A stretch of 64,000 bases of DNA from the IMG/VR virus record IMGVR_UViG_3300026521_000151, positions 3,627 through 67,626 of that record; one strand, 5' to 3'. A model generated the notes under the pieces. It was not told where the DNA came from. It saw nothing but the letters and a program-made list of their open reading frames with translations, and made no database searches. This DNA comes from a virus. A program made the position numbers and the translations under genes. Of this stretch, positions 14,141 through 36,610 are shown one piece after another. How positions within the stretch are numbered: the first letter of the stretch is position 1; every line of letters starts with the position of its first letter.

Positions 14141-14251
14141 AAAATTCAATGTCATTAAAATTAGTATAAAAATATAAAATCCCTAAATTAAGGTAAATAC
14201 CCTATGGGAAATTTTATATAATAAATATATACTAATAATAAAGTTATTTTA
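14141..14251 (-). repeat. Dispersed palindromic element R1, copy A
   Basis: Core CCCTAAATTAAGG..ATACCCTATGGGAAATTTTATATAATAAATATATACTA..ATAAAGTTATTTT; overlaps the stop codon of 14249..14479. Confidence 0.92.
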
Positions 14252-14479
14252 TAGCTCTTGTAAGTCTTTATATAATTTTATTTTACTACTAACTGTTTGG
14301 TGTAAAGTATGTCTTAACTCTTTTATAACTGTACTCTTAGCTTCTACCTTTACCTGTAAATCTTTAATAGTTTGTCTAAGTAGTAGTAAATCATTCACAG
14401 TAATACTAACTTTATCCTCACCTTTTAATTCATAACTTGCTTTGTTTATTTGTTGTAATAAAAAATCTATTCTTTTCAT
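14249..14479 (-). CDS. Hypothetical coiled-coil protein
   Basis: 76 aa with RBS; stop codon lies at the R1 boundary. Confidence 0.55.
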   Translation of the reverse strand: MKRIDFLLQQINKASYELKGEDKVSITVNDLLLLRQTIKDLQVKVEAKSTVIKELRHTLHQTVSSKIKLYKDLQEL

Positions 14480-14638
14480 TTTATATCCTTATAATTCTTG
14501 TGGATTGTCTATACACCATTTTATCATTTTGAAATTCATAATCTATGTTAGCCTCAAAAGACTCTCTATCATCTTTTAAATTTAATACTTCTAAAACTAC
14601 TATATTGTCATATTCATTTATTACTGTAACTTTAAACA

Positions 14639-14947
14639 TTATACATCCTTTACTAATTTATTTATTAATTGTTTTCTTTTATTTCTGTACTCTCTCATAT
14701 ATTTCCTTCTCTTTTCTTTATTATAGTTAGCTTTTTTGTACTCATTATTTTGCTCTAAAAATAAATCATAACTGTTAGGCTTTACAATAAATCTGATAGT
14801 CGACTTAGACACCTTGTATATTTCTTTTAAATCATTATAACTATAAAGCCCCGACGCATACAATTCTTTTATTTTTTGTTTGTCTTCATCACTTAGTTTT
14901 TTTCGCCTATCTACCCCTAAGTTTGATAAATTAACTTGTTTTATCAT
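14639..14947 (-). CDS. Putative HTH DNA-binding protein
   Basis: KLSDEDKQKIKELYASGLYSYNDLKEIYKVSKSTIRFIV; start re-called at the ATG after AGGAG. Confidence 0.6.
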   Translation of the reverse strand: MIKQVNLSNLGVDRRKKLSDEDKQKIKELYASGLYSYNDLKEIYKVSKSTIRFIVKPNSYDLFLEQNNEYKKANYNKEKRRKYMREYRNKRKQLINKLVKDV

Positions 14948-14959
14948 TATTTTACTCCT

Positions 14960-15069
14960 AAAATTCAATGTCATTAAAATTAGTATAAAAATATAAAATC
15001 CCTAAATTAAGGTAAATACCCTATGGGAAATTTTATATAATAAATATATACTATAATAAAGTTATTTTA
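14960..15069 (-). repeat. R1 copy B
   Basis: Near-identical to copy A; overlaps the stop of 15067..15342. Confidence 0.92.
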
Positions 15070-15342
15070 TTTACTTTTATTACTTAATTGTAATATATTT
15101 ATTTCAACGCTTTTGTATAAATCAATATAACAATTATATAAATTTATTTTTATTAAATTATCATAATCCTTTTGTTGATACACTTCCGCTCTCGTCAGCA
15201 CACAAATACTATCCATACAAAACTTAATATAGTAATGTCTATTATTTTTAATGTGTCCTACCTTATCTATAATTTTATACTCAACCAAACAATTAAACAA
15301 ACTTTCTTTTGTTAAATCGATTAAATTAATCTTACATAACAT
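15067..15342 (-). CDS. Hypothetical protein
   Basis: 91 aa with AGGAGG RBS; lies between R2 and R1. Confidence 0.55.
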   Translation of the reverse strand: MLCKINLIDLTKESLFNCLVEYKIIDKVGHIKNNRHYYIKFCMDSICVLTRAEVYQQKDYDNLIKINLYNCYIDLYKSVEINILQLSNKSK

Positions 15343-15360
15343 ACTACCTCCTTTTAAAGT

Positions 15361-15454
15361 GTTTTAAGCAACTTTATATACTTAGATATACAAATACACC
15401 TAAAACTTAATAAAGTTGCTTAGAAGCAAAGTATGAGCCTTATAGAGCTATATA
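15361..15454. repeat. R2 copy 2 (inverted relative to copy 1)
   Basis: Reverse complement matches 14001-14094; supplies the last codons and stop of the SF2 helicase. Confidence 0.88.
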
Positions 15455-16783
15455 CTTATCAAACTTCACAACTCTCTTACTGTCTTTCTCTTTAACTACT
15501 AATTTATTTATATCATTATACCTTTGTTTACATTGTTTAGTTAATACACCACCAAACATAATGTCAATAAATAAAGGTTTTTGTTTTGTACTATGTTCAC
15601 GTACTAATCTACCTCTAAGCTGTTCTAAGTTTTCTTTTGTAAGTGTAGATAAATTAATAATAGTGTCCAACCTCTCTATTGATACACCTTTATTTAAAAT
15701 AACCCCTGAAATAATAATATCTAATTCCTCATCTCCAAAATTATTTATTATCTCCTCTCTATCACTCTTTTTCACTTTACTATTGATGATACCGACTTTT
15801 AATCCTATGTCTTCTAATAGTAACTTATAGTATTCCATAACGATACTGTAATTAGTGTAAAGTAGAATTTGTCTATTTTCCTTTTTAAGTTGAGTTATTA
15901 GGTTTATAACATATTTACTAAACTCTTCATTGCACACAATGTTTGAGTAAGCATCAGCAAATGAATTACCGTCCCATTTAGTTCTCCACGAGGTCAAATC
16001 TAAAATATCCCATTGTACTTTTAGACCTTTATTTAATCCTACTACTTCATTACTTCCAAATAAATCTCTAAGTAATTCAGTTAAACCATCAGACCTTGTA
16101 GGAGTAGCCGTAACAAATAATTGGTATGCGTGATTCAAATTAGCTAAAACATCTCTATAAGTTTCAGCTCCTAAAATGTGTGCCTCATCTACAATCACAA
16201 ATCCTACAATTTTAGATAATTCTTGTACTATGTCAGCATTCCTATGTAAAAATTGAAATGTAGTAATATAAACGTCTTTTGTTATGTCTAATTTTTTATC
16301 CTTTACAATTTGGTAATTTCCATTTGAGTTATGTTTGAATTCTTTACTCATTTGCTCTACTAAAAACTTTCTATCTACAATAATTAAAGTTTTTTGATTA
16401 ATTTCCTCCACAATAAAAGGTAAAATAAAACTTTTACCGAAACCACAAGGAGCTACTAATAAACAATCGCCTTTGTTTTTTAAATTTTCAATAACTTTGT
16501 TTACTGCTATTTCTTGGTTAGGTCTAAGTTTCAAGTTATCTGACTTCCTAAAATTAGTTAGATTATTTTTAGTTGTTTTGTCTATTATTTTTAAACTACC
16601 TAAAACATTTTTTAATTTATCTATATCTCTCGGGAATTTAATATAATCTTTACCTACTTTTGTGGAGGTCACTATTTTGTAATCAAAATTACTACCTTGC
16701 CTATAAGAATACTTTTTAATAGCTTCTAAACTATTCTTAGTTTTTGGTACAATATAAAACCCTGATTTTATTACCTCTATCAT
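15440..16783 (-). CDS. Superfamily 2 DNA helicase (UvsW/T5 D10-like)
   Basis: LRPNQ, APCGFGKS, VDEAH, TATPTRSDG, QLRGRLVR. Confidence 0.9.
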   Translation of the reverse strand: MIEVIKSGFYIVPKTKNSLEAIKKYSYRQGSNFDYKIVTSTKVGKDYIKFPRDIDKLKNVLGSLKIIDKTTKNNLTNFRKSDNLKLRPNQEIAVNKVIENLKNKGDCLLVAPCGFGKSFILPFIVEEINQKTLIIVDRKFLVEQMSKEFKHNSNGNYQIVKDKKLDITKDVYITTFQFLHRNADIVQELSKIVGFVIVDEAHILGAETYRDVLANLNHAYQLFVTATPTRSDGLTELLRDLFGSNEVVGLNKGLKVQWDILDLTSWRTKWDGNSFADAYSNIVCNEEFSKYVINLITQLKKENRQILLYTNYSIVMEYYKLLLEDIGLKVGIINSKVKKSDREEIINNFGDEELDIIISGVILNKGVSIERLDTIINLSTLTKENLEQLRGRLVREHSTKQKPLFIDIMFGGVLTKQCKQRYNDINKLVVKEKDSKRVVKFDKYIAL

Positions 16784-17049
16784 TTTGCACCTCCTTTGTA
16801 ATAATTCACTAAATTAACTAAGTCTTCAATCTCTAAGTCTAAATCTTGTAAAGTGACTGTTATATACCCTAAGGTAGTCCAATCATAATCCTCACAACCT
16901 TTATACACATAAGGTCTATTTGTGCCAAATTCTATTTCTACTCTATCTATTATGTTATCCACCATATACTCTAATATCTCTAAGACATAATCAGATAAAG
17001 CTATTGCAAAAGCCTCTTCTATGTCGTGTGCTTCTATTGTTAAACTCAT
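16780..17049 (-). CDS. Hypothetical acidic protein
   Basis: Start re-called at MSLTIE after the AAAAGGA RBS at the end of R1 copy C. Confidence 0.55.
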   Translation of the reverse strand: MSLTIEAHDIEEAFAIALSDYVLEILEYMVDNIIDRVEIEFGTNRPYVYKGCEDYDWTTLGYITVTLQDLDLEIEDLVNLVNYYKGGAK

Positions 17050-17054
17050 TTTAT

Positions 17055-17189
17055 AATCCTTTTTCTTATGTATTTTTAATGTCATTATTTTACACCTATT
17101 TTTATAAAATCCCTAAATTAAGGATAATACCCTATGGGAAATTTTATATAATAAATATATACTAATAATAAAGTTATTTTTAACTATCT
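17055..17189 (-). repeat. R1 copy C (with RBS tail)
   Basis: R1 core plus ATACATAAGAAAAAGGA tail shared with copies D and E. Confidence 0.92.
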
Positions 17190-17367
17190 AAATCAAATCT
17201 ATTTTCGTTTAAAATATCACATATTTTCTGTGCATCTTTTTCTGTTTTAAAATAAACTCTATCAGGAAAATAAAAATAATCTGTTATACTTGTTATCCAT
17301 TGTTCATTGTTTTCTTCTACAAAAATCTTTTTTAAAACCAAACAATTCTATCTAATGTATCACTCAT
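17180..17367 (-). pseudogene. Probable gene remnant
   Basis: RBS+ATG gives only 11 codons; another frame reads KKIFVEENNEQWITSITDYFYFPDRVYFKTEKDAQKICDILNENRFDLDS* into R1. Confidence 0.4.
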
Positions 17368-17379
17368 TTATTTATCCTT

Positions 17380-17682
17380 TTATTTATGTAATTGTTTTAA
17401 ACTAAAACAATTACATCCGAAATAATCTGAAACTTTTGGATAATAATCTTCATATTCTTCTATTTCTGTATTATATATTTGTTGTGTTAAACAATTACTA
17501 ACACATTCTTCTCCGTTATAGTATATACAGTTTTTACATATTCTATTTTCAAAATCATCATATATTTTATTTATTAAAAATCTTACATCAGTTGTTTTCA
17601 CTACTTTTTCAGTTACTGCTTTGTCATCATCTTCATATCTTGTTACTTTAAAATTTAAAGCTTTTTCTCTTGTTAATTCCAT
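17380..17682 (-). CDS. Hypothetical Cys-rich protein
   Basis: 100 aa; CKNCIYY...C...FGCNCF. Confidence 0.6.
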   Translation of the reverse strand: MELTREKALNFKVTRYEDDDKAVTEKVVKTTDVRFLINKIYDDFENRICKNCIYYNGEECVSNCLTQQIYNTEIEEYEDYYPKVSDYFGCNCFSLKQLHK

Positions 17683-17997
17683 TTTACACCTCTTTTTATA
17701 CGACTAATAAGACTTGGATTAACTCCAAATTTTATAGCTAGATCTTTATTCTTATAACAGTTTTTAACATATTTTTTAGCTCTTTAACTTTTCTTCATTT
17801 AATCTTGCTCTATTATGGTTTTCTCTTTTTAAGTTTCTTAATCCTTACTCATTACAAGCTTTTCTACAATTTTCACCCCTTGTTGTATACTCTAAATTTT
17901 CTGCATTATTATTTCTTGCTACTTCATTATCAATTAGTATTAACTCTTTATAAGATCCTGATAATTCAAATCTTATTTTAAGCTCTTCTATATCCAT
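17673..17997 (-). pseudogene. Decayed HNH endonuclease with C-terminal HTH
   Basis: NNNAENLEYTTRGEN, then in-frame TAA (17845-17847), ENHNRARLNEEK, two 1-nt deletions in A tracts, then LAIKFGVNPSLISRIKRGVKW. Confidence 0.7.
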
Positions 17998-18033
17998 TAA
18001 ATGATAAGAAGTATTTTTGCATTTCTTCTAATT

Positions 18034-18243
18034 TTATTTGTTTTTCTTTTCAATAACAAAATAAATAGTTATGTCCTTACAGTTAGAGTCAATTTGTAAA
18101 ATATTGATTTGATCTATTTCATCCTTATAAGGAAACCATACATCATTTAGTAACAAATATCTTAACCTTGATATATAAAAATTTCCAACATTTTCTATTG
18201 TATGTTCAATAATTTTTCCGTGATTATACCCAAATACTCTCAT
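18034..18243 (-). CDS. Hypothetical protein
   Basis: 69 aa with AAGGAG RBS. Confidence 0.5.
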   Translation of the reverse strand: MRVFGYNHGKIIEHTIENVGNFYISRLRYLLLNDVWFPYKDEIDQINILQIDSNCKDITIYFVIEKKNK

Positions 18244-18315
18244 TTTAAGCTCCTTTTGTAGTTTATGTATATTTTATAATTATATTTGCTATCTTACCTC
18301 TAAGCATACTTTATG

Positions 18316-18633
18316 TTAAATTGTACTAACTATGTCATCAATTACTAAATCCGGACGACTTAATAAGATTTTAACTAAATCCCACGAATCTTTTAACTCT
18401 TCATACTTTAACTTAGAATTAATGTACTCTAAATGACTTGATTTTAGTACATTATTACTTTGGTAAAACTCTCCTAATACTTTATCTTTTGCTGTTCTAT
18501 CTTTTGGATTATCTTTTTTCCACTCATTATATAACTTAGTTTCTAAGTGTTCTAAATCAACTTTATTACTTATATACTCAAATCTTGCTACTGCTAAACT
18601 ACCTTTTAACTCTTTAATTTTATTTAAACTCAT
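18316..18633 (-). CDS. Helical hypothetical protein (weakly UvsY-like)
   Basis: 105-aa all-helical pattern; weak recognition only. Confidence 0.35.
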   Translation of the reverse strand: MSLNKIKELKGSLAVARFEYISNKVDLEHLETKLYNEWKKDNPKDRTAKDKVLGEFYQSNNVLKSSHLEYINSKLKYEELKDSWDLVKILLSRPDLVIDDIVSTI

Positions 18634-18827
18634 TTTTGATCCTTTTTGTTTTGTTTATTTTGTGCTTTTATTTTAGTAAATTTTTTCTCTAAGTGTAGTA
18701 ACACCCGCTCATTATCTTCTACATAACCTGAACCTAAATCATAAAGCTCAGTTAAACAAGCATCACTGAACTCTAATAACTCTTCAACTACTCTAATTAA
18801 TTTTTTATTTTGTTTTTCTAATTTCAT
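18630..18827 (-). CDS. Hypothetical protein
   Basis: 65 aa; RBS supplied by the tail of R1 copy D. Confidence 0.5.
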   Translation of the reverse strand: MKLEKQNKKLIRVVEELLEFSDACLTELYDLGSGYVEDNERVLLHLEKKFTKIKAQNKQNKKDQK

Positions 18828-18832
18828 TTTTT

Positions 18833-18985
18833 AATCCTTTTTCTTATGTATTTTTAATGTCATTATTTTACACCTATTTTTATAAAACCCCTAAATTAAG
18901 GATAATACCCTATGGGAAATTTTATATAATAAATATATACTAATAATAAAGTTATTTTATGTTTATTTAATTATCATTTATATTG
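18833..18985 (-). repeat. R1 copy D (with flank shared with copy F)
   Basis: R1 core; 18857-18985 matches the reverse complement of 34935-35064. Confidence 0.92.
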
Positions 18986-19092
18986 TTTAGTACAACATAA
19001 TCAACCCTAAACCGTTGTTCTTTAAACAACCACTTACTGTCAGTTCTTAGTTGAGCTTCAAATTCTACATATTCCTACGATAACAGCTCTTT
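18986..19092 (-). pseudogene. Internally deleted duplicate of gene 19575..19997
   Basis: Three collinear pieces match about 19612-19660, 19838-19859 and 19950-19980. Confidence 0.75.
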
Positions 19093-19211
19093 TTATAATT
19101 TTACTTTACCTTACTATTATACATAGCTCTATAAGGCTCATACTTTGCTTCTAAGCAACTTTATTAAGTTTTATAAGCAAACATACTATAAGCCTTTTAA
19201 AGTTGCTTAAA
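19089..19211. repeat. R2 copy 3
   Basis: About 120 bp identical to 20007-20129. Confidence 0.9.
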
Positions 19212-19213
19212 AC

Positions 19214-19429
19214 TCAATAGGGTTGTCTTATAGGGCTATTACCTTTTGTTTTATCAATTATTTTATTTAGTGATATTGTGTACTCCACGTCTACACTACT
19301 TCCGTCTTTAAAAATATACCTAATTATTTTATGTTTCTGCTCTTCTTTTAAGTAAATAGTATCTAAAACCTCACTAAAATACTCACTAACATTTTCAGCT
19401 TTTATTATTTTATCACTTGTATACTTCAT
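19214..19429 (-). CDS. Hypothetical protein
   Basis: 71 aa; lies between R1 copy E and R2 copy 3. Confidence 0.5.
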   Translation of the reverse strand: MKYTSDKIIKAENVSEYFSEVLDTIYLKEEQKHKIIRYIFKDGSSVDVEYTISLNKIIDKTKGNSPIRQPY

Positions 19430-19432
19430 TTT

Positions 19433-19567
19433 TAATCCTTTTTCTTATGTATTTCCACTGTCATTAAAATTAGTATAAAAATATAAAATCCCTAAATTAA
19501 GGATAATACCCTATGGGAAATTTTATATAATAAATATATACTATAATAAAGTTATTTTTAACTATCT
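19433..19567 (-). repeat. R1 copy E
   Basis: R1 core plus RBS tail. Confidence 0.92.
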
Positions 19568-19574
19568 GAATTAA

Positions 19575-19997
19575 CTAAATAGACTCTAAATATAAATCAT
19601 CTATCTTATTATTTAGTACATCATAATCAGCTCTAAACCATTGTTCTTTAAACAACCACTCCCCGTTTTCTTTTATAACCACAACTGTTATGTAACAATA
19701 CGGTGGTTGATCCTCCATTAAATCCCTAAAATCTATGTTTAGACTACAACTAACCGTGCAAGTATCACTAATTAATTTACAGTTTTTTAACTCGTGGAGT
19801 ATAAAGTGTTTTGAATAAATACCTCCGTCATCTTTTGGTTGAGCTTCAAATTCTACATAATCAATAGCCCCTATTTTTCTATTTACAATGTTTTCTAACT
19901 TTCTAACTAATCGTGTAGTTGTTATAAAATCATCTATTTCTAATTCATTTTCTACATATTCCTGTGATAACAACTCTTTTGGTGTATTCCATTTCAT
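19575..19997 (-). CDS. Hypothetical acidic protein
   Basis: 140 aa; bracketed by R2 copy 4 and R1 copy E. Confidence 0.65.
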   Translation of the reverse strand: MKWNTPKELLSQEYVENELEIDDFITTTRLVRKLENIVNRKIGAIDYVEFEAQPKDDGGIYSKHFILHELKNCKLISDTCTVSCSLNIDFRDLMEDQPPYCYITVVVIKENGEWLFKEQWFRADYDVLNNKIDDLYLESI

Positions 19998-20006
19998 TTT
20001 ATAATC

Positions 20007-20129
20007 CTTTTTATAATTTTACTTTACCTTACTATTATACATAGCTCTATAAGGCTCATACTTTGCTTCTAAGCAACTTTATTAAGTTTTATAAGCAAAC
20101 ATACTATAAGCCTTTTAAAGTTGCTTAAA
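20007..20129. repeat. R2 copy 4
   Basis: Direct repeat of 19089-19211; overlaps the stop of 20125..20316; carries TATAAT upstream of the RBS on the minus strand. Confidence 0.9.
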
Positions 20130-20316
20130 TCCTTTTATTTTTACTAATTATTTCGAAGTCAATAAATGATACAGGAATTAGCACAAAGGTTTCAAGTGTT
20201 TGTTTATAACCGTAAAGGTAAAATTTACCTACATTTCCTGCTAAACCGTCAAACACTAATTTATAATTTCTTACTCTTATAACTTGTCCTTTTGTTAAGT
20301 AAATAATACTATTCAT
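20125..20316 (-). CDS. Hypothetical protein
   Basis: 63 aa, coupled to the upstream gene. Confidence 0.5.
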   Translation of the reverse strand: MNSIIYLTKGQVIRVRNYKLVFDGLAGNVGKFYLYGYKQTLETFVLIPVSFIDFEIISKNKRI

Positions 20317-20633
20317 CTCTTACTCCTTTTCTTTTTATTTTGTTTGAAATACTTTATATTTTGTGGGTTTTTAATTATAATTCCTACCTTTTCAGTAGTT
20401 AACCCACTTAAATAATGATAGGTAACACCCTCAAACTCTATAATATAAGTTTGGTATTTTTTCAGTATTTTATATTTTGTTTGTCCTTTTCTGTGATTTT
20501 CAACCCATAAATGTTCTCTAAAATCATCCCAGGTGGAAGTAGTAGGGTTATATTTTGTTACATTTAGTAACAAAACTAAGTCTTTATAGCCAACTTTACT
20601 GAATTTTGCTACTCTTGCTCTAAATTTATCCAT
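20313..20633 (-). CDS. Hypothetical basic protein
   Basis: 106 aa; LLLNV...DDFREHLWV pattern. Confidence 0.55.
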   Translation of the reverse strand: MDKFRARVAKFSKVGYKDLVLLLNVTKYNPTTSTWDDFREHLWVENHRKGQTKYKILKKYQTYIIEFEGVTYHYLSGLTTEKVGIIIKNPQNIKYFKQNKKKRSKR

Positions 20634-22934: not shown

Positions 22935-23146
22935 AAATATAAGGGTAATTTCATATTACTGAAAAAATTACCCTTATATTTATATAACATTGTGATTTAA
23001 TTCTACTTAATAAATCACCTTATTTATGGGAAGTGGTGATTATTATTTAGTGTTTTTCATATTTTATAAAATAATTGTATAACATTGTCAAACATTAATC
23101 AGTTATGACTACCTTACAAAATTTTTTTATTTTTTGTAAGGTAGTG
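22935..23146. repeat. Cluster of inverted repeats with candidate promoter
   Basis: 17-bp stem 22935-22981, 9-bp stem about 23010-23043, 14-bp stem 23108-23146; TTGACA-17-TATAAA on the minus strand near 23063-23091. Confidence 0.75.
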
Positions 23147-23158
23147 AAATTTTTGTAA

Positions 23159-23253
23159 GTTTTTGAGTTCAGTTTTTTGAGTTCAGTTTTTTGAGTTCAG
23201 TTTTTTGAGTTCAGTTTTTTGAGTTCAGTTTTTTGAGTTCAGTTTTTTGAACT
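23159..23253. repeat. 14-bp tandem repeat (GTTTTTTGAGTTCA) x6
   Basis: GAGTTCA at 23165, 23179, 23193, 23207, 23221 and 23235. Confidence 0.95.
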
Positions 23254-23524
23254 TAATGGAACATCGCCGAAAAACCAAGTAAAAAGCTGAACGAAATTAT
23301 TATGTCGATTTTGTTGTATCTCATTTTGAATCCTTTATTTTTTATTTTTTAAATTACATTTTAATTTTTTAAATAAGCTTGAAAATCAGCTATCACAAAA
23401 TTGATTTCAGATAGCTTTAAATTTTCTTTGAAGAGTTGGTCTTTAATTTGTATTAACATTTTAACCTGCTCTTTTTTATTTAGTTCTTTGAAAAACTCCA
23501 CTAAGTTTATATAATCATTTAATT

Positions 23525-23821
23525 TCATTTTGAATCCTTTATTAAAGTTTCTAAATTAGCTTTTAAATTGTAAGAGCTTACTACGATACAACCTCCACAG
23601 TCTTTTCCACGGTATTTTTTCCCGCCAATTTCCCTGCTTATTTTTAAAGCTTGATTAAACAATTTAGAAATAGAATTTATGTCTATTTTATAATCAATCT
23701 CTTTTAATCTAAGAAAATACAAAAAGTGAATCACATATCTAGGGTTACCATTCACATCGTTCTTAACTCTTTTATACTCAACTTCTACATCATTTACAGT
23801 TACATAGTTAACCATATTCAA
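23525..23821 (-). CDS. Conserved-looking small phage protein
   Basis: RVKNDVNGNPRYVIHF...GGKKYRGK..GG.IVVSSYNL; AAAGGA RBS. Confidence 0.6.
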   Translation of the reverse strand: MNMVNYVTVNDVEVEYKRVKNDVNGNPRYVIHFLYFLRLKEIDYKIDINSISKLFNQALKISREIGGKKYRGKDCGGCIVVSSYNLKANLETLIKDSK

Positions 23822-24280: not shown

Positions 24281-24483
24281 GATAGCTTGAAGGTGTATTA
24301 TAATAGTTATAATAGATTATATGATAGCTTGGAGGTGTATTATAGATAGCTGTATGGAGGTGTATTATAATAGTTATAATAGATTATATGATAGCTTGGA
24401 GGTGTATTATAGATAGCTGTATGGAGGTGTATTATAATAGTTATAATAGATTATATGATAGCTTGGAGGTGTATTATAATAGT
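24281..24483. repeat. 67-bp tandem repeat built from six G(G/A)AGGTGTATTATA cores
   Basis: GATAGCTTGG at 24323, 24390 and 24457. Confidence 0.92.
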
Positions 24484-24570
24484 GTTATTAGTGGAGTGTG
24501 CTTCCATTATATGTTTGACTCAAACATAATGATACAGGGGGATGTTAGTTTGAGATTTTTAGTGGTTGTT

Positions 24571-27120: not shown

Positions 27121-30111
27121 TTAATTTGCACAATCAATACATTTATTTGATTCTTTTGAATCAATAGTTAAGCTATAATACACTGCTTTCAATTCTTTAT
27201 TTTTAAAAGCATTCAATATACTATCACTAATAAGTTTTATATTAGTATTTTCAGGATTGATAAATAACTCCATTGAAATACCTGTATCGACCCATCTCTG
27301 TAACCTTGTTGTCATATGCACTATATCGTGTGCAGGTATTTGATACTTAGCTTTATAACTCCAATAGTTAGTTTTTATAAATTTAGGCATAACAGGTACA
27401 TTCATACCCCCTAACTTTTGATAAAAGAACTTTTCTTGTGGCGGTAAGTAACTTGCCGTCGTACCCATAAGTAATCCTGTTGAAGTGTTAGGTGCTATTG
27501 CTAACAACCAACCATTCCTTAGTCCATACTTATTTATGTCATTTATTAAACCAACCCAATCTAAATTGTTTAAACTTCTTTGGTTTAACTCTTCTGGTAA
27601 TGTACCAAATAATGTCTTAATACCATTAAAAGCTTTGTAACTACCTTTTTCCTTAGCTATTTCCATACTACCTTTAAATGTATAGAATGAAATAAGTTCT
27701 ATTAGTTTTTCAGCCTCGTAATAACCTTTTTCACTGTTATAAACAACATTCTTACTTGCTAAATAATCAGCTAACCCTAAAATACCTATTCCTATATTTC
27801 TAAACAACTCTGATGAATTCTTAGCCTCTGGTACAGGCATTGTTCCAGTATCAATAGAATTGTCTAACATTTCTACTGCACATTTAGCTACCTCCTCAAT
27901 ATCATATTTGTCTATATCCGCTACATTAATAGAAATCAAACTACAACTATGGTATAAACCATCTGATGTATAATTAGTTATTTTATCCTCAACAACATCT
28001 AAGCTATATTTAGTAGCTGGTTTAATTAGGCTATAACTTTCTTGACATTGTCCTGTACATAAACCATTAAACATACCTAAATGTTTTTTAGACTCTGTAA
28101 AACACCAAGTAGGTTCTATTTTACCTTCATCTACAATAGCTGTTACTTGTATAAACTGTTCAGCGTTTCTACTAGGTTGTCTTAATTTAGGTTGTAGTCT
28201 AAATGTCTTTAAACCAAGACTTAGTAAAGCTTGAACACCATTCTCTCCGATAAGTAACCTATAACTATCCTCACGTTTGTTTAAAGTAGTTACAACACCT
28301 AATGTCTGTAGCATCAGTAAAACATTATGTAAAAATATATAATTCTTGTCCTTTATTTGAATACTATAATCACCAAACAAAATACCATTATTATCCATAA
28401 GCTGTGCTAACCACCTTAACCTACTTTGTACTGTATAAGCTTTATCAGGTACAAAATAATCACCTGATTTAAGATTAGTACAAGAAAATTCTTTATACCC
28501 ATCAATAATAGGTAAGTCAAATTTAATTAGTTTATCACCTATATGCAACTCATATGCACGCTTTTCAATAGTTTTACCCGCAATAGCCACATAAAATTTA
28601 TGGTAAGGAGTACATTCAATAGTACCTCCGTTTGTTTCTACTTTTACTACTTTCTGTCCTTCACTTGTCTTAACAATAGTAGTTTCACTCCACTCACTAC
28701 CATTCCACACATTCACTTGTTGGTCTTCTAAGTCTATAATCTCTTTATATCCATACTCTTTTGTTAAAATCTTAGTATCTCCAACAACACACAGATTCCC
28801 ACAAGTAGCTACACCAATATCTTGATGTCTATTATCTATGTTTAAGTTGTCTTTGTGATTTATATAAAAATCTCCAGTTTCAATGTAAATCTCTAAGTAC
28901 CTTTTCCATAATTCTTTAGCTTTTACTTTTCTAAAATGCTTTAATTTACCGTCTTCAATTAACTTTACTATTTTACTATAAGTGTCTTTAAAAGCATCGC
29001 CTATTAAATAAGGTATCACTACATTTAATAATTTACCTGCTTCATAATGGTCAAATTGATATACAAAGTCATCATTTAAAACTGCGTCTATAAACACATC
29101 ATCTACAACAATTTGTGGGAATAAATCAAATGCTTTTAACCTTAACTCTCCTGCTGTTTCTGTTTTCATTTCTACAAAATCATTACTGTCTAAATGATAC
29201 CAATCGATAGCTGGTGTTATAGCACCTTTCCTATTAGCACTTGCTTGTGTTACTGAATTAGCTATATCATTAAAGAACCTAACCCAATTCATTATATTAC
29301 CAGCACTCGGTATTTTATCTGACTTACTTCCTTGTGGTCTTATAGGAGTAACATATACACCTAAACCTCCACCGGCTCTCGATATAACACCTGCATCCAT
29401 AATAGCCTTTGCAATACCTTCCCAACTATCAGAAATAGGTAGAATAAAGCAACTACCTGTGTTACCATTAGGTACTCTTAAATTTCTTTTAAATGGTGTA
29501 GCTAAACTGATAACATTATTGTTAAGTAAATTAAAGTATTGTTTAGCTTTACTGACTCTATCTGTATAATTATTAGCTAAAATCATTGCATTAACTAAAT
29601 TAGCCCATATAGGATATTCTGTTATGCTGCCATTTAACTTTAGTAGATATTTTGATTTTAAACTTGCTACTTGTGCTATTGTAAGCTCAAAATCTTGTAA
29701 ATTACCGTCAATAAATTTACTTAACTCAGCTAAATCATCTTTCGTGTAATTACTTAAAAGATTAAAATTATACAAATTATTATCAACAGCAAATGTTGTT
29801 ATAAACTCATAAAAATTATGATAGTCTAATTTAGTTTGTTTATAAACTTGTCTATATAATTGCCACATAGCTAATCTACCAGCTACTTTAATCATATCAG
29901 GTTCATCTAATGATGTAAGCTTTATAGCAGTTGTCATAATAACATCTTGTAAATCAGTTGTAGTTACTACCTCACTTGTTATTTTTAACTTACTCTCAAT
30001 TTCGAGGGGATTAATATCTGTATCTTTACAAGCAAACTCTAACTGCCTCCTAATTTTAAGTACATCAAATTCCTCTAACTCACCACTTCTTTTTATAACG
30101 TTTTTAATCAT
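27121..30111 (-). CDS. nrdA: Class I ribonucleotide reductase alpha subunit with ATP cone and intein
   Basis: N-terminal ATP cone VIKRSG, SCF, GGGLG, NL-[intein]-CQE, APNTSTG, C-terminal CxxC. Confidence 0.95.
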   Translation of the reverse strand: MIKNVIKRSGELEEFDVLKIRRQLEFACKDTDINPLEIESKLKITSEVVTTTDLQDVIMTTAIKLTSLDEPDMIKVAGRLAMWQLYRQVYKQTKLDYHNFYEFITTFAVDNNLYNFNLLSNYTKDDLAELSKFIDGNLQDFELTIAQVASLKSKYLLKLNGSITEYPIWANLVNAMILANNYTDRVSKAKQYFNLLNNNVISLATPFKRNLRVPNGNTGSCFILPISDSWEGIAKAIMDAGVISRAGGGLGVYVTPIRPQGSKSDKIPSAGNIMNWVRFFNDIANSVTQASANRKGAITPAIDWYHLDSNDFVEMKTETAGELRLKAFDLFPQIVVDDVFIDAVLNDDFVYQFDHYEAGKLLNVVIPYLIGDAFKDTYSKIVKLIEDGKLKHFRKVKAKELWKRYLEIYIETGDFYINHKDNLNIDNRHQDIGVATCGNLCVVGDTKILTKEYGYKEIIDLEDQQVNVWNGSEWSETTIVKTSEGQKVVKVETNGGTIECTPYHKFYVAIAGKTIEKRAYELHIGDKLIKFDLPIIDGYKEFSCTNLKSGDYFVPDKAYTVQSRLRWLAQLMDNNGILFGDYSIQIKDKNYIFLHNVLLMLQTLGVVTTLNKREDSYRLLIGENGVQALLSLGLKTFRLQPKLRQPSRNAEQFIQVTAIVDEGKIEPTWCFTESKKHLGMFNGLCTGQCQESYSLIKPATKYSLDVVEDKITNYTSDGLYHSCSLISINVADIDKYDIEEVAKCAVEMLDNSIDTGTMPVPEAKNSSELFRNIGIGILGLADYLASKNVVYNSEKGYYEAEKLIELISFYTFKGSMEIAKEKGSYKAFNGIKTLFGTLPEELNQRSLNNLDWVGLINDINKYGLRNGWLLAIAPNTSTGLLMGTTASYLPPQEKFFYQKLGGMNVPVMPKFIKTNYWSYKAKYQIPAHDIVHMTTRLQRWVDTGISMELFINPENTNIKLISDSILNAFKNKELKAVYYSLTIDSKESNKCIDCAN
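28048..28791 (-). mobile_element. Intein (248 aa) ending in Gln, with partial LAGLIDADG domain
   Basis: Block A CVVGDTKILT, block B IECTPYHKF, C-terminal HLGMFNGLCTGQ followed by +1 Cys (the catalytic NLCxE cysteine). Confidence 0.9.
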
Positions 30112-30146
30112 CGTCTAAATTCTCCTTTTTGTTTATTTAGATTGAC

Positions 30147-30814: not shown

Positions 30815-31082
30815 TCTTTAACCTATCTAAAACTAATTCATCTAACTTTAACCTATCTTCATCAAATCTATCTAAGTCTTTAATAACAATAATAGGTATG
30901 TTTTTAGTTAATGTTTTAAGTTGTGAATTATCTCTTGTTAGTGAGTATTTTTGCTTCACCACATTTAAAGTTCTGTCAGAAATACCAAACACCTTAGCTA
31001 TCTCTTTGTCTGTAAGGAAAGGTAATAATGATTTCAATAACCTTAAATCATCACCTCTCCAATTATTCTTTCTCTTTTTCAT
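30807..31082 (-). CDS. Putative HTH protein
   Basis: LTDKEIAKVFGISDRTL. Confidence 0.55.
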   Translation of the reverse strand: MKKRKNNWRGDDLRLLKSLLPFLTDKEIAKVFGISDRTLNVVKQKYSLTRDNSQLKTLTKNIPIIVIKDLDRFDEDRLKLDELVLDRLKNG

Positions 31083-31092
31083 TTAAACACCT

Positions 31093-32463: not shown

Positions 32464-32473
32464 ATCAATCCTT

Positions 32474-32863
32474 TTACGCTAATTGATTAAGTACATTGAT
32501 AATTACATTCTCACCACCTGCACCTAATCTCTTTTTCTCAGTTTCTTTCATCATTGCATTTGTCGTATTTATAACATCTAAAATATCTCTACCTCTGCCT
32601 AACAAATCAGTCATATTTTCAGCATTCTCTGTTAGCTCATCTGTAAGGTCATTAAGTATCTCACTTTGCTTTACTTTAAGTAATAACTCTCTATGTTCTA
32701 CAATTTCAACTAATTTATCTTTTATATTAGGTTTAACAAATACTTTGTTTATAGCTTTTATTGGTAAATCTAATTTATAAGCTATGTCTTTTCTTGAATA
32801 ACCTTTAGTATAAAGTTCTAAGACTTGTTCATCTAACTCTGTAAATTTAACTAACTCATTCAT
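32474..32863 (-). CDS. terS: Probable terminase small subunit
   Basis: N-terminal HTH and helical body, directly upstream of terL; start re-called at MNELVK. Confidence 0.65.
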   Translation of the reverse strand: MNELVKFTELDEQVLELYTKGYSRKDIAYKLDLPIKAINKVFVKPNIKDKLVEIVEHRELLLKVKQSEILNDLTDELTENAENMTDLLGRGRDILDVINTTNAMMKETEKKRLGAGGENVIINVLNQLA

Positions 32864-33065
32864 CGTTATACCTTTTAGGTAATTTATTTGTATAACCACA
32901 TTTATATTTAACAAACTGTATAAAATCACTGATAGACGCCACTACATCTGAATCCTTACTCCTAAGTTTTCTATAAGCCTCTTCACAAACATCACAAGTA
33001 TTTTTATCGTCTTGAATACGTTTACCGCAACTGCAATATCTCCTATTTTTCTTTAATCTTACCAT
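32856..33065 (-). CDS. Small Zn-ribbon protein
   Basis: CSCG...CDVC. Confidence 0.5.
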   Translation of the reverse strand: MVRLKKNRRYCSCGKRIQDDKNTCDVCEEAYRKLRSKDSDVVASISDFIQFVKYKCGYTNKLPKRYNDE

Positions 33066-33066
33066 A

Positions 33067-34581
33067 TTAACTCACCTTATCTCGATAGCTTGATTTAGCT
33101 TTCATACCACTACGAGTTAATGTTACTACATTTTGTGCTATAGAGGCTAACAATTCTATCGAATATATATTATGCTTAGCTTTCTTCATAAACTTAGCGT
33201 AGTCTTCTTCATTATCTTTAAAGTTAGCTGATTTAAAATAACTTACTAACTCTTCAGCAGGAATACTACATAAAATTAAGTCAAATAAAGTTACCATATC
33301 TTTATCTTTTTGTAAGTCAAAACTACCAATTAAAATAAATAGCTCTTTTACTTCCTCTCTATATTTTCTATAAGTCTTAATATCTACCTCTGCTAACCTT
33401 GCTAATCTATTATAGAACCCTACACCTTCCATAATATGATCAATAGTTGTTGCTCCTGTGTCTATTGCTATTGCTAAATTAGTAATAATCTTTATCAGCA
33501 TTTTAGAGTGTATAGTTTTAGTTAAGTCTAAATAATACTCTCTTGTAAATTTAGAATAAACAGGATTATAATTATCCTCTGTAAAATTAAATACAGATAA
33601 TGCTATGTTCTCTACCTCACTATTGTATAAAGGTATTCTAAATCTCTCATTCTCTCTCATTGCTATCTCCTTAAATTCTACATAACTTAATCCATTTCTA
33701 TGTGCCTCAAACCCTAATAAAGTAAGATTACTAAGTAAAGCTTTATTCCTACCACCGACATTAACTTTACTTAAATCAACTAATTGCTTAGTTATAAACT
33801 TACTTTTTGTTTCAAAATTAAACTCTTTTATTGTGAATCTACTAAGTTTATTTAACATTGTTGCTACAACACAATTAACAATCTCTTTACTACTAATAAA
33901 ATCTGTTAGATTAAATATAGTATTATTAAACTTATGTTCGTGTTGTAAAGGATTTCTCATTATATAACCTGCTGCATTCAAATCACCATTAAATAAGGCA
34001 TTCATTTGTCCTACCACATATTTATATAAAACAGTAGATAATGAGCTTTTGTTAGCTATGAAATGGTCTAATGTAAATAATATGTGCCAACCTTTCTTAG
34101 TCTTAGTGATAAAAGAAGGTAATTTACCAAACTTAGCCGTACAAAACTTCTCAATATCTTTAAAAGACTTAAATTGTTTTCTATCATCAATATCAACAGG
34201 TACAACTTTACTACCTAAAATACCATTACTTGTAGGCTTAATTTGTATAAAATAAGCTGTATTGATAGCAATGTTATTAAATGTTTTATCTGTTGCCGCT
34301 TTCTTATCTTTGGCTAATGAGCACTGCATTAGCCTTTGGTTGTTTACATAATAACTTAAATGTTCCTTAGGTAGATTTTTACCTACTCTTTTTCTACCTG
34401 TCGGGCTATATTGTAATTGATGTTTATCTACACCTTTTAAAATAGAATTAAGCTCTGTTAACTCTCTATTAAATTTAGTCTTAGCTTTAATAACTCCTTT
34501 CGGCAGCTTAGGTCCACTAAACATATTAGAAAGTTCATTTTTAAATTTTGATTTTATATCATCTATTATTTGTTTATTCAT
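33067..34581 (-). CDS. Plasmid-type replication initiator/primase (ColE2-like Replicase + PriCT-1)
   Basis: VDIDD, TKKGWHILF, GDLNAAGYIMRNP, GGRNKAL, PLYNSEVENIALSV. Confidence 0.7.
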   Translation of the reverse strand: MNKQIIDDIKSKFKNELSNMFSGPKLPKGVIKAKTKFNRELTELNSILKGVDKHQLQYSPTGRKRVGKNLPKEHLSYYVNNQRLMQCSLAKDKKAATDKTFNNIAINTAYFIQIKPTSNGILGSKVVPVDIDDRKQFKSFKDIEKFCTAKFGKLPSFITKTKKGWHILFTLDHFIANKSSLSTVLYKYVVGQMNALFNGDLNAAGYIMRNPLQHEHKFNNTIFNLTDFISSKEIVNCVVATMLNKLSRFTIKEFNFETKSKFITKQLVDLSKVNVGGRNKALLSNLTLLGFEAHRNGLSYVEFKEIAMRENERFRIPLYNSEVENIALSVFNFTEDNYNPVYSKFTREYYLDLTKTIHSKMLIKIITNLAIAIDTGATTIDHIMEGVGFYNRLARLAEVDIKTYRKYREEVKELFILIGSFDLQKDKDMVTLFDLILCSIPAEELVSYFKSANFKDNEEDYAKFMKKAKHNIYSIELLASIAQNVVTLTRSGMKAKSSYRDKVS

Positions 34582-34623
34582 ACAATCTCCTTTTATTTAT
34601 TTTTGTATCAGTAAATTACTTGT

Positions 34624-34671
34624 ATTATATCAAATTTTTAAAGTAATGTCAAGGGTTTTATAAAGAAATTT
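34624..34671 (-). promoter_or_regulatory. Consensus promoter for the rep-terS-terL operon
   Basis: TTGACA-17-TATAAT (34652-34624); near-identical inverted twin at 35087-35134. Confidence 0.8.
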
Positions 34672-34934
34672 TAAAAAACTTCACACTCTCTATAAGTATA
34701 TTACACCCCACTGTACAAAGTTTTAGGTTTTTTATGTGTTGCTAAGTGCGATGACGCCCACCAATTAGGTAAGTAAGAAATTTGTAAATTTAAATATACT
34801 ATAAGTATTATATACCTATTTCTGTTAATTTTAGTTTTAATGATAGCTAACGCGTTAGTGTAGTTTATAATGTAGTGTTGAGTAGAGTGACATAAATCAG
34901 TGGAGTGGTTGTAATTAGTTAGTCTATATTAGAG

Positions 34935-35071
34935 CAATATAAATGATAATTAAATAAACATAAAATAACTTTATTATTAGTATATATTTATTATATAAAA
35001 TTTCCCATAGGGTATTATCCTTAATTTAGGGGTTTTATAAAAATAGGTGTAAAATAATGACATTGAATTTT
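34935..35071 (+). repeat. R1 copy F
   Basis: R1 core on the plus strand upstream of the ligase promoter. Confidence 0.92.
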
Positions 35072-35086
35072 ATGGGTTATTTATAC

Positions 35087-35134
35087 AAATTTCTTTATAA
35101 AACTCTTGACATTATTTTAAAAATTTGGTATAAT
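35087..35134 (+). promoter_or_regulatory. Consensus promoter for DNA ligase
   Basis: TTGACA (35106)-17-TATAAT (35129). Confidence 0.8.
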
Positions 35135-35162
35135 TGTGTATAAATACACAAAAAGGATTTAG

Positions 35163-36509
35163 ATGAAATCTATTATAGACAGACTTAGTAATGTAAGTTC
35201 TCGTAAAGAGAAAGAGCGTATTTTAACAGAACATAAAGAAAATGAACTATTTAAAAAAGTGTTAAAAGCTACATATGATAATAGTATAAAGTATTATATA
35301 ACTGATTGTGTTTTCACTCCTACCAACGAAAACATAACATTAGATAATGCAATAGACTATCTGTTAAATGAAATAGCTACACGTAAAGTAACAGGTAACT
35401 TAGCACAAGAAACAGTTAATAAAATATATTCATCATTACCTACCGATGATAGATATGTTTTTAAGCTTGTTTTAGAGAGGAATTTAGGTTGTGGTATATC
35501 AACTACTACAATCAATAAAGTCTTCTCTGAGCTCATTACAGACCCTAAGAAACTATATATGCGTTGTAGTACGTATGATAAAAGTAAAATAAGTAAGATA
35601 GCAAAACCAAATGACCTATTTTATGTTCAAGAAAAGTTAGATGGTTTATATTGTAATTATGATATTAATAATCAAGACTTTATAACAAGGAACTTAAAAC
35701 AATTACCTTTGTTTGTAAATCAGTATGAAGCTTTTGTCGATATTGTAAGGGGTGTTAATAACACACAACTAAGTAATGGTGATTATATTTTACAAGGTGA
35801 GTTATTAATTAAAGACAAAATAACTAATGAGATACTACCTCGCGAGGTTGGTAATGGTATGTTAAACAGTAAGAACAATTTATTAGATTTAACTAAGTAT
35901 AAAGTAGTGTATTACGTGTGGGATGTGATAAGTAAAAATGTATGGTTAGGTAAGCAACAATCTAAACCTTATTATGATAGACTACAATTTTTACAAGATA
36001 ATGTTAAGTTTCTTAACGATTGTGTAGTAGTACCTCAAACAATTCAAATATACCATAATGGGAGTTTTGAATCAGAAGTAGATAAATTATTAGATTTATT
36101 TTTAAGTAGGGGTAGTGAGGGAATTGTAATTAAACATAGTAAGATGTTATGGGAGGGTAAAACAAGTAAATATCAATTAAAATATAAAAAGGTGATTGAG
36201 GTTGATTTACTAATTACTGATTTATTAAATGGTGTTACAGGAAGCAATAAAGGTAAATTATCTATATTACACTGTGAGAGTTTAGAGGGGGAGTTACAAG
36301 TTAATGTCGGCATAGGTTTGAGTGACGAAGTATTAGAGGACATTAGAAATAATATGAATAATTGGTTAGGTAAGGTTGTAGCTATTAAAGCATTTGGTAT
36401 TACAACTAATGATAATGGTTATAGTTTATTCTTACCTCGTTTTGTAGAGTTAAGGTTAGATAAAGATGAACCTGATAGTATAGATAGAATAAAAGAAATA
36501 GATAGTTAA
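35163..36509 (+). CDS. ATP-dependent DNA ligase (T4-like)
   Basis: QEKLDG, LQGEL, VWD, EGIVIK, KYK, SLFLPRF. Confidence 0.93.
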   Translation: MKSIIDRLSNVSSRKEKERILTEHKENELFKKVLKATYDNSIKYYITDCVFTPTNENITLDNAIDYLLNEIATRKVTGNLAQETVNKIYSSLPTDDRYVFKLVLERNLGCGISTTTINKVFSELITDPKKLYMRCSTYDKSKISKIAKPNDLFYVQEKLDGLYCNYDINNQDFITRNLKQLPLFVNQYEAFVDIVRGVNNTQLSNGDYILQGELLIKDKITNEILPREVGNGMLNSKNNLLDLTKYKVVYYVWDVISKNVWLGKQQSKPYYDRLQFLQDNVKFLNDCVVVPQTIQIYHNGSFESEVDKLLDLFLSRGSEGIVIKHSKMLWEGKTSKYQLKYKKVIEVDLLITDLLNGVTGSNKGKLSILHCESLEGELQVNVGIGLSDEVLEDIRNNMNNWLGKVVAIKAFGITTNDNGYSLFLPRFVELRLDKDEPDSIDRIKEIDS

Positions 36510-36610
36510 AATAATTTTATTATTAGTATATATTTATTATATAAAATTTCCCATAGGGTATTATCCTTAATTTAGGGATTTTATATTTTTATATTAATTT
36601 TAATGACATT
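36500..36610 (+). repeat. R1 copy G
   Basis: Begins in the last ligase codons (AGATAGTTAA, shared with copies C and E). Confidence 0.92.

Follow-up and report, generated by a model that had tools for sequence, protein, structure and literature searches.

The DNA analysed here is a 64,000-nucleotide (nt) stretch, hereafter the window, corresponding to bases 3627–67626 of the single-contig virus record IMGVR_UViG_3300026521_000151 (67,626 bases in total); all coordinates below are those of the window. The subject of this study is R1, a hairpin-forming element of about 110–135 nt that lies repeatedly between the genes of this phage. The window has a G+C content of ~28% and is ~88% coding, and has 31 non-coding gaps measuring 60 nt or more. 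Among 86 open reading frames (ORFs) scanned with Pfam and PHROG, the matches are those of a tailed phage with two gene modules. The leftward module (~2.8–34.6 kb, minus strand) encodes primase, a DnaB-type helicase, a family A polymerase, ThyX, an SNF2/DEAD helicase, a deoxynucleoside monophosphate (dNMP) kinase, ribonucleotide reductase (RNR) and the large terminase, while the rightward module (35.2–62.8 kb) carries an ATP-dependent DNA ligase, the small gene ORF95, an HK97-type portal, a protease, the capsid and tail genes, a holin and a lysozyme. No RNA polymerase or sigma factor family is matched among these 86 ORFs, and neither tRNA nor transfer-messenger RNA was found. The phage is uncultured, siphovirus-like and very AT-rich, with an HK97-type portal, and is not T4-related. 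The source record is classed as linear with a CheckV completeness of 36%, and a contig of 74,976 nt encodes an identical portal protein. The record may therefore lack about 7 kb, and further copies of R1 could exist outside it.

By repeat finding and alignment, and likewise by a scan that tolerates mismatches and by an nhmmer profile, the 67,626-base record contains exactly seven copies of R1, designated A to G (Table 1). A scan with the 56-base core, allowing up to 12 mismatches, returns seven sites, all of them known copies, and the profile gives seven matches (E 2e-32 to 9e-29) and none besides. Exact R1 patterns have no match in IMG/VR, a search whose scope possibly leaves out near-identical records, and the core pattern has none in one genome per species from 185,579 species. 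Rfam finds no family at gathering score in the whole window; at E ≤ 1, the region 13900–20200 yields just a chance match to a small nucleolar RNA, outside R1.

The placement of the copies is precise. All seven are intergenic, occupying 7 of the 31 gaps of at least 60 nt, and each is oriented like its neighbouring genes. Copies A, B, C and G overlap the stop codon of the gene before them, and five of the seven (B, C, D, E and G) reach the next ribosome-binding site. In four of these five (B, C, E and G), R1 makes up the entire gap of 119–145 nt between stop codon and ribosome-binding site. R1-A begins on the stop codon of a 76-aa ORF and is followed by a copy of a second repeat (R2a, see below), not by a ribosome-binding site; R1-B begins on the stop codon of a 91-aa ORF, and its tail ends in the AGGAG ribosome-binding site of a helix-turn-helix (HTH) gene. 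A 10-nt 5′ extension common to C, E and G encodes the final residues and stop of the ligase and of a 53-aa ORF: the 53-aa ORF ends in the extension of C and the ligase in that of G, after which the element ends at the ribosome-binding site of ORF95. These observations agree with an earlier note on this DNA, which had placed seven copies at these positions, oriented with the flanking genes, overlapping the upstream stop in the same four copies (the last ligase codons included) and ending in the next ribosome-binding site in the same five. In B and C, the reading frame of the downstream gene reaches back to the conserved ATG of TAATGACA in R1 (14945–14974 and 17047–17085), and longest-ORF calls consequently begin within R1 in these two copies. 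The ribosome-binding sites point to the downstream ATGs at 14947 and 17049 as the true starts.

Table 1. Positions of the R1 copies and of the features discussed with them (window coordinates, except the two families of the relative G001, which are given on contig L035)
Feature	Position	Strand	Remarks
R1-A	14118-14252	-	arm v1, full palindromic tail t1
R1-B	14948-15072	-	arm v1, partial tail t1
R1-C	17050-17189	-	arm v2, tail t2 with ribosome-binding site
R1-D	18828-18985	-	arm v2, tail t2
R1-E	19430-19568	-	arm v1, tail t2; 5′ extension same as in C and G, non-coding here
R1-F	34935-35086	+	arm v2, tail t1; D-type 5′ flank
R1-G	36500-36637	+	arm v1, tail t2
R2a	13971-14093	-	directly downstream of R1-A
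R2b	15362-15425		hairpin part only
R2c	19089-19211	-	119/120 aligned bases identical to R2d
R2d	20007-20129	-	upstream of 140-aa gene
140-aa gene, intact	19575-19997
140-aa gene remnant, decayed	18986-19088	-	between R2c and R1-D
Small HTH protein gene	14639-14947	-	111 aa, inside the A-B cassette
SNF2/DEAD-type helicase gene	15440-16783	-	with two small ORFs, bracketed by R1-B and R1-C
P_left	34624-34685	-	consensus sigma-70, 12/12 + TG, with upstream region
P_right	35087-35134	+	consensus sigma-70, 12/12 + TG; between R1-F and ligase gene
ATP-dependent DNA ligase gene	35163-36509	+	bracketed by R1-F and R1-G
ORF95	36638-36925	+	between R1-G and portal gene
G001 141-nt family	L035 440-580, 1845-1985, 3692-3832
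G001 108-nt family	L035 6828-6935, 8196-8303, 9495-9550, 10467-10574

Five of the seven copies are concentrated at 14.1–19.6 kb among 15 ORFs, 13 of which have no Pfam match; the remaining pair encode the helicase and the small HTH protein. The latter contains a resolvase-type HTH (HTH_7) alone, with no catalytic domain, is the only resolvase-related match, and is a candidate DNA-binding regulator. That R1 brackets small genes and remnants, as had been proposed, is borne out by the accessory gene sets, the helicase and ligase genes and the decayed duplicate described below.

Architecture of R1 and exchange between copies

In a trimmed alignment of the seven copies, the 5′ part of R1 spans 74 columns, five of them variable, and contains an invariant 5′ sequence of ~45 nt ending in TATAAAAT. 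The 16-nt block that comes next, the arm, is of version v1 in copies A, B, E and G and of the unrelated version v2 in copies C, D and F. Beyond the arm lie the conserved TAATGACA and then the tail, which is of type t1 in three copies (A, B and F) and of type t2 in the other four. Arms and tails are found in all four combinations: v1/t1 in A and B, v2/t2 in C and D, v1/t2 in E and G, and v2/t1 in F. Repeated mutation is excluded because the alternative blocks differ at most positions, and the presence of all four combinations indicates that the copies exchanged segments, as the earlier note had argued. Judged from the alignment, R1 copies have recombined with one another, inter-copy exchange being the only explanation for the mosaics. 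R1-F is such a chimera: its 25-nt 5′ flank, the G at column 67 and the arm are D-type, and the tail is A-type. The flank itself, common to D and F, comes from the 3′ end of the remnant of a 140-aa gene (gene140).

The tails also determine the symmetry of the element. Tail t2 runs into the ribosome-binding site of the following gene, and t1 is complementary to the 5′ start of R1, so that A and F are ~125-nt palindromes closed at their ends (TAAAATAAC ... GTTATTTTA). This closure, from AAC to GTT, is found in A and F and partly in B; 4/7 copies are without the GTT 3′ end. The terminal inverted repeat is 9 bp long in A and imperfect in F, and no target-site duplication was recognised at R1. Palindromes with pairing ends, nearly identical as after a recent burst and absent from all 32 relative loci described below, could be those of a selfish, non-autonomous element resembling a miniature inverted-repeat transposable element (MITE), placed between genes by an enzyme encoded elsewhere. 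We consider this origin quite improbable. The record encodes no transposase, the lack of a recognisable target duplication and the missing 3′ terminal repeat of four copies do not fit, and the gene-remnant flank shared by D and F shows that at least this copy spread with its flank by recombination rather than by precise transposition. Random insertion would produce the co-orientation of 7/7 copies with P ~0.008 (by our own arithmetic, and for copies that are not independent), and the core pattern is unmatched in both IMG/VR and the genomes of the 185,579 species.

A second repeat family, R2, consists of a 15-bp perfect stem with a loop of ~34 nt followed by a TATAAT-containing stretch, and has four copies near copies of R1. 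The loop of R2b is the reverse complement of that of R2a, which means that both orientations of the hairpin unit exist. R2d-gene140-R1-E is repeated as R2c-remnant-R1-D, and it is worth noting how differently the parts of this unit have aged. In the three longest blocks of the gene140 remnant, 89/98 bases are identical to the intact gene (19/22, 22/22 and 48/54), and at least four deletions have occurred; the R1 cores of D and E match at 76/77 positions, with one indel. At the 9% divergence of the remnant, we calculate that repeats as conserved as these would have P ~2e-4 for R2 and ~0.03 for R1. As the repeats are intact while the gene between them decays, they are either constrained or homogenised by conversion, and the comparison offers a simple, reusable internal clock for repeat maintenance. 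This same duplicated unit with its decaying gene, the near-identity of the copies and the weak fold statistics given below could mean that R1 is functionless, left over from recent segmental duplications and kept uniform by gene conversion. We hold this to be improbable, since the repeats persist intact around a decaying gene, since the precise placement from stop codon to ribosome-binding site occurs in an 88% coding genome from which useless DNA is normally lost, and since a relative of the phage (G001) keeps analogous repeats.

What machinery would the exchange require? Neither a tyrosine or serine recombinase nor a Y1/HUH transposase is present among the 86 ORFs scanned. At the level of the record, PF00589 (tyrosine recombinase), PF00239 and PF01797 (Y1 transposase) give no match, and the control searches found them in 14/14, 12/14 and 6/14 genomes, respectively. 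This search confirms for the whole record that no integrase is in view, as the earlier note had remarked. An SbcD/SbcC-like nuclease pair is present in the window, and general homologous recombination is the economical explanation for the exchange between R1 copies. Copies A and B, 819 nt apart in direct orientation and differing by one indel over ~118 nt, are an obvious substrate for deletion or excision of the three intervening genes.

The likeness to integron attC sites that had been drawn from the palindrome did not survive this analysis: the record encodes no integrase, and the palindrome is closed only by the full-length tail (A, F and partly B). An integron-like attC array, in which a folded single strand is recombined by a site-specific recombinase missing from the record, is accordingly an extremely remote explanation. 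The architecture does resemble that of chromosomal integrons, with promoterless co-oriented ORFs separated by ~120-nt imperfect palindromes that start from the stop codon; the full-length copies end in AAC ... GTT, and the ~7 kb that the record may lack could hold the enzyme. Against it stand the absence of any tyrosine recombinase from 67.6 kb, the 3′ GTT end missing in 4/7 copies, flanks that, compared by eye, do not fit the RYYYAAC / GTTRRRY consensus, and the distribution of the copies over both strands and two modules. Moreover, the chimera junctions lie inside the element, as homologous exchange predicts, and not at one fixed site.

One DNA metagenome run, examined as contigs, contains 94% of the sampled words of this region. 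Its contigs break at R1 and R2, and four joints in the run have a shorter side of 22–30 letters (the caution limit being 30); we give these no weight, as they are probably assembly overlaps at the repeat. Judging from shared pieces, the run shows co-occurring phages to be mosaic without singling out R1 as a breakpoint, and one shared-piece end does coincide with an R1 edge (19442, in the tail of E).

Relatives and the position of the ligase gene

We collected 32 relative loci from JGI metagenomes and IMG/VR, several of which are the same contig in both collections. Their nearest portal proteins are ~50% identical to that of the window. As single queries, the portal and the helicase return no relative in IMG/VR (in the scope given above), and blastn of 33000–39000 against 50,697 phage records gives no match. 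The R1 profile matches 0/32 of the relative loci.

In the five loci that extend to both sides (L002, L004, L021, L011 and L028, from three lineages), the portal gene directly follows the divergent region, and 0/5 have any gene between the two, be it a ligase or an ORF95 homologue; no ORF95 homologue occurs in any of the 32 loci. The ligase gene lies in the opposite module in both long relative records. In G001, a record of 60.8 kb, its homologue is on the opposite strand, 10.7 kb from the portal gene, and is flanked by homologues of the small RNR subunit and the dNMP kinase; in G002 it is on the opposite strand, ~9.7 kb away by our own arithmetic. The syntenic place in the window is occupied by three small ORFs, and the ligase gene lies instead between R1-F/P_right and R1-G. 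We infer that the ligase gene was relocated in the window phage. G001 also contains homologues of three of the R1-bracketed small genes in another order, and a homologue of the SNF2/DEAD helicase was not found in the G001 stretches.

G001 (contig L035) has repeat families of its own, unrelated to R1 in sequence, of 141 nt and 108 nt (Table 1). They lie among small minus-strand genes, have hairpins and end in a ribosome-binding site and ATG. All copies of the 108-nt family carry a perfect palindrome, GTTACAAnTTGTAAC, just before the ribosome-binding site, and one copy has the enclosing stem AAAAATCGGGC/GCCCGATTTTT instead of TTTTTTGAGTGTC/GACACTCAAAAAA around the same conserved core. An attempt to find covariation in G001 family D2 with RNAalifold was uninformative: 2/23 pairs were changed on both sides, and the stem of the odd copy is in another register. 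Three relative loci scanned around the portal gene have no such repeat families. With one relative as the basis, repeated intercistronic cassettes may be a trait of this phage group, the sequences themselves being lineage-specific.

Orientation-biased intergenic repressor sites, or stoperators, occur in mycobacteriophages, and R1 copies could likewise be binding sites for a phage regulator such as the HTH_7-only protein encoded inside the A-B cassette; the R1 core contains small palindromes and two TAGGG-containing direct repeats 19 nt apart, and the analogous repeats of G001 contain the GTTACAAnTTGTAAC palindrome. We nevertheless regard this as very improbable: 110 nt is far above the size of any operator, nothing ties the HTH protein to R1, and the strand asymmetry of folding described below is irrelevant to a duplex site. 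A separate candidate for a binding motif, AGGTGTA, which occurs in arm v2, the R2 loops and the 67-nt tandem repeats, was rejected: 40 occurrences are observed where 9.5 are expected, and they are mostly in-gene GGT-GTA codons.

Predicted fold, promoters and a proposed role for R1

The v1 hairpin has perfect arms of 9 bp and 8 bp together with CCC/GGG. In the predicted sense RNA, v1 forms stems of 9, 1 and 12 pairs: the outer stem consists of 9 perfect pairs (ATTAGTATA/TATACTAAT), and the 12 pairs of the inner stem include TATAAAAT/ATTTTATA and CCC/GGG. The 3′ side of v2 pairs in a different register, via G-U pairs, giving stems of 6, 10 and 11 pairs. In all four copies tested, the sense RNA is predicted to fold better than the antisense (−16.1 to −19.1 versus −7.8 to −13.2 kcal/mol), which favours a role in RNA over a DNA cruciform. 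The inner hairpin, at −9.6 kcal/mol, can be compared with the phage's own terminator-like hairpins (−7.6 and −14.0 kcal/mol), which lie upstream of two consensus promoters. The prediction also provides sense double-stranded RNA of at least ~20 bp with an internal loop between cistrons, as expected of a ribonuclease III (RNase III) site. Support for an RNA processing site, which the earlier note listed as an alternative, is no weaker than that for any role of R1 in DNA.

Eight near-consensus sigma-70 promoters (at least 11/12) were found, at −7568, −9394, −23091, −24180, −30175, −34652, +35106 and +44146 (signs denote strands), two of them preceded by a hairpin and T-run. The minus strand from 23063 to 9394, a stretch of ~13.7 kb that includes copies A to E, contains no site scoring 11/12 or better. 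Within R1 no sigma-70 site rises above background; the best reach 9/12, in C, E and G only, and shuffled sequences give as many. R1-F lies between two divergent consensus promoters, directly upstream of P_right, and is the only copy with a separate 12/12 promoter 20 nt downstream. P_left and P_right are divergent, inverted near-copies: 45/48 positions agree in a comparison that takes in the AT-rich part upstream. The 400-nt segment with R1-F could be inverted by recombination between the two promoters; in the relative G001, two tandem 12/12 promoters face left and none faces the portal gene. The ~250-nt non-coding stretch between P_left and R1-F (34686–34934) has a visibly higher G+C content and no Rfam match.

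Could R1 itself be a start signal? It might be a phage-specific middle or late promoter with a conserved 5′ leader, used by the host RNA polymerase with a phage factor, in which case the promoter would reside in the invariant 45 nt at the 5′ end, and the remainder would form an untranslated leader up to and including the ribosome-binding site. The promoter-like size of this ~45-nt stretch, the constant aim of R1 at the downstream gene, whose ribosome-binding site it reaches in 5/7 copies, and the ~13.7 kb of minus-strand genes around A to E that have no consensus sigma-70 promoter and perhaps need another start signal all speak for this possibility; a factor could be encoded among the many ORFs of no assigned function. 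We think it unlikely all the same. There is no sigma-70-like site above background and no sigma factor or RNA polymerase family in the 86 ORFs; expression of small early-region ORFs and of the unit before the portal gene would need to depend on the same element; and what follows A and F is a promoter-like unit (R2a and P_right, respectively), not a gene. The overlap with the upstream stop codon and the palindrome would also be left unexplained.

Based on the above data, we propose with moderate confidence that R1 is an intercistronic hairpin cassette that acts on RNA and at the same time provides portable homology for ordinary homologous recombination, its molecular function being deduced from sequence and predicted fold. 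R1 would be a lineage-specific cassette that fills whole gene-to-gene gaps and consists of three parts: a 5′ edge with the stop codon; an almost invariant 74 nt that, with the 3′ arm, would form an AU-rich imperfect hairpin in the sense RNA; and one of two 3′ arms, followed by either the palindrome-closing t1 or t2, which bears the next ribosome-binding site. Presumably co-transcribed with its neighbours, R1 would punctuate long transcripts, as a weak terminator or attenuator where v1 is followed by a U-run, or alternatively as an RNase III-type processing site or a 3′-stabilising hairpin. A stop signal in R1-G makes sense, as this copy lies between an early-type promoter-ligase unit and the late structural genes. 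As DNA, 75–120 nt of near-identical direct homology would allow ordinary recombination to generate the chimeric copies and duplications that are seen here, and synteny suggests that the same process deletes or relocates genes between copies. No dedicated recombinase would be needed for such exchange.

Several observations weigh against this proposal. The R1 fold is predicted to be thermodynamically modest and barely better than that of shuffled sequences: z ranges from +0.44 to −2.14 for the seven long stretches, with 5/7 at +0.44 to −0.69, and from −0.45 to −2.93 for the four trimmed copies, of which only A reached −2.9. The single long imperfect hairpin described in the earlier note is real for v1 in its pairing, and its stability is close to that of shuffles. 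When the 16-nt arm was replaced by 400 random genomic 16-mers, the fold was as good as that with v2 in 6% of cases and as good as that with v1 in 25%; the native arms do not stand out from random or shuffled blocks, and v1 and v2 are therefore not demonstrably compensatory variants. Only the v1 copies (A, B, E and G; 4/7) have a U-run after the hairpin, and the 74 almost invariant bases exceed what a hairpin needs, perhaps reflecting recent copying or gene conversion. R1-F lies upstream of a promoter, and no strong promoter is known to read into it. A search of sequencing runs for 13500–20500 matched no RNA run. With respect to gene movement, other contigs of the metagenome run share, within dissimilar flanks, pieces of the region that end at 14472, 14840, 17630, 17934 and 18262, which are not R1 edges, and the relatives are so distant (portal ~50%) and fragmentary (CheckV 32% and 24%) that gain or loss exactly at R1 edges is not resolvable.

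The two arms also suggest a bolder use of the cassette, to which we assign very little probability. R1 could be a portable adaptor, made of stop codon, palindrome and ribosome-binding site, for capturing and expressing promoterless genes in the manner of an integron without integrase, with the arm setting the state of each junction. At the place of the U-run, v2 has AGGTG, a Shine-Dalgarno-like sequence 7 nt before the conserved ATG of ATGACA; D and F thereby gain a short upstream ORF and C an in-frame extension. A v1 junction, with its hairpin and U-run, would stop or cut the transcript, and a v2 junction, with AGGTG and the short upstream ORF from ATGACA, would let expression run on. Were this true, gene conversion from one copy to another would alter both the expression and the order of genes in a lytic phage.

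Some further features of the window lie apart from R1. The gene for the family A DNA polymerase is divided into two ORFs (9486–11264 and 7590–8444; region 7590–11264) by a free-standing HNH/NUMOD endonuclease gene (8609–9343), which has its own 11/12 sigma-70 promoter at 9394; in the relative L003 both polymerase parts are contiguous (4617–6317 and 3822–4616). The large RNR subunit (27121–30111, 996 aa) has an intein-splicing domain match at residues 451–681, inside the barrel domain. The Pfam family Phage_TreK, whose name refers to terminal-repeat-encoded proteins of Staphylococcus phages, is matched by a 98-aa protein (23525–23821; E 1.3e-18). Tandem arrays at 23146–23257 (14 nt x 6.5, 100% matches) and 24281–24488 (67 nt x 2.9, 99%, with six GGAGGTGTATTATA motifs) lie in non-coding gaps of 0.5 and 0.9 kb beside the consensus promoters −23091 and −24180, and both could be replication-origin iterons or regulator sites. 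Lastly, the gap immediately downstream of the promoter at −7568 contains a perfect 54-nt direct repeat (7378–7431 and 7456–7509), 78 nt from start to start.

Comparison with known systems

Correia/NEMIS, ERIC and RUP elements are MITE-like intergenic palindromes of bacteria. R1 is similar to them in size, imperfect dyad symmetry, transcribed intergenic site and possible effect on RNA processing. It differs in residing in a phage genome, in having no recognisable target duplication, in its strict co-orientation and in the spread of at least one copy together with its flank. The attC sites of integrons, such as the repeats of Vibrio cholerae, are imperfect palindromes of ~120 nt, one after each ORF of a co-oriented array. 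Size, the imperfect palindrome after ORFs and the AAC ... GTT ends of full-length copies are common ground; unlike attC, R1 comes with no integrase, mostly lacks the 3′ end, is distributed over both strands and two modules, and has its exchange junctions inside the element.

The RNase III signals of phage T7 are imperfect hairpins of about two helical turns. Like R1, they are several in number, stand in the sense orientation between cistrons and precede the next ribosome-binding site. No sequence relationship exists, however, R1 copies are more alike than a shared structure needs, and cleavage of R1 is hypothetical. The early polycistronic RNA of T7 is described as containing five such signals, with 22 bp given as the length of an ideal substrate (PMC3867540). 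By analogy, these signals appear to be the nearest functional counterpart of a sense hairpin placed between a stop codon and a ribosome-binding site.

In evolutionary terms, the closest parallel is with the promoter-early stem-loop (PeSL) cassettes. As described previously, PeSLs are small cassettes, composed of a strong sigma-70-like early promoter and a terminating stem-loop, that flank ORFans in hyperplastic regions of the T4-type phages RB49/phi1, T4/PST and KVP40/nt-1; exchange between them gives rise to indels, chimeric PeSLs and mini-circles without a dedicated recombinase (PMC2839356, PMC4122927). R1 shares with them the short, repeated intergenic stem-loop motif among small ORFans of a plastic region, the chimeric motifs produced by inter-copy exchange, bracketed genes that differ from those of relatives, and the lack of a dedicated recombinase. 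There are several differences. PeSLs have a strong sigma-70 consensus promoter and R1 has none, though this phage has such promoters elsewhere; the PeSL stem-loop is described as stable, often G/C-rich and shown to terminate, whereas the R1 hairpin is AU-rich and weak. R1 is also longer (~110–135 nt), includes the stop codon of the gene before it and the ribosome-binding site of the gene after it, and belongs to an unrelated siphovirus-like phage with an HK97-type portal. Mini-circles are likewise reported for PeSLs, and R1 is known here from sequence alone. Because R1 has no such promoter, it is not a PeSL proper.

R1 thus behaves evolutionarily like a PeSL without being one, and is a lineage-specific variant of PeSL-type cassettes. 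This replaces the earlier suggestion of an undescribed system. The notion of a cassette-shuffling system can be retained for the evolutionary behaviour, that is, the mosaic copies and the position of the ligase gene and ORF95 where the relatives have no gene, and is to be dropped in the sense of a dedicated system, as no recombinase is present in the record. Until a host or close relatives come to light, the practical value is limited. Most of the documented cases in which repeats shuffle small genes come from T4-type myoviruses; the signature of such shuffling in an unrelated, uncultured and very AT-rich phage suggests that any conserved intercistronic signal, and not just a promoter-terminator unit like the PeSL, can become portable homology that moves genes, for example that of a DNA ligase.

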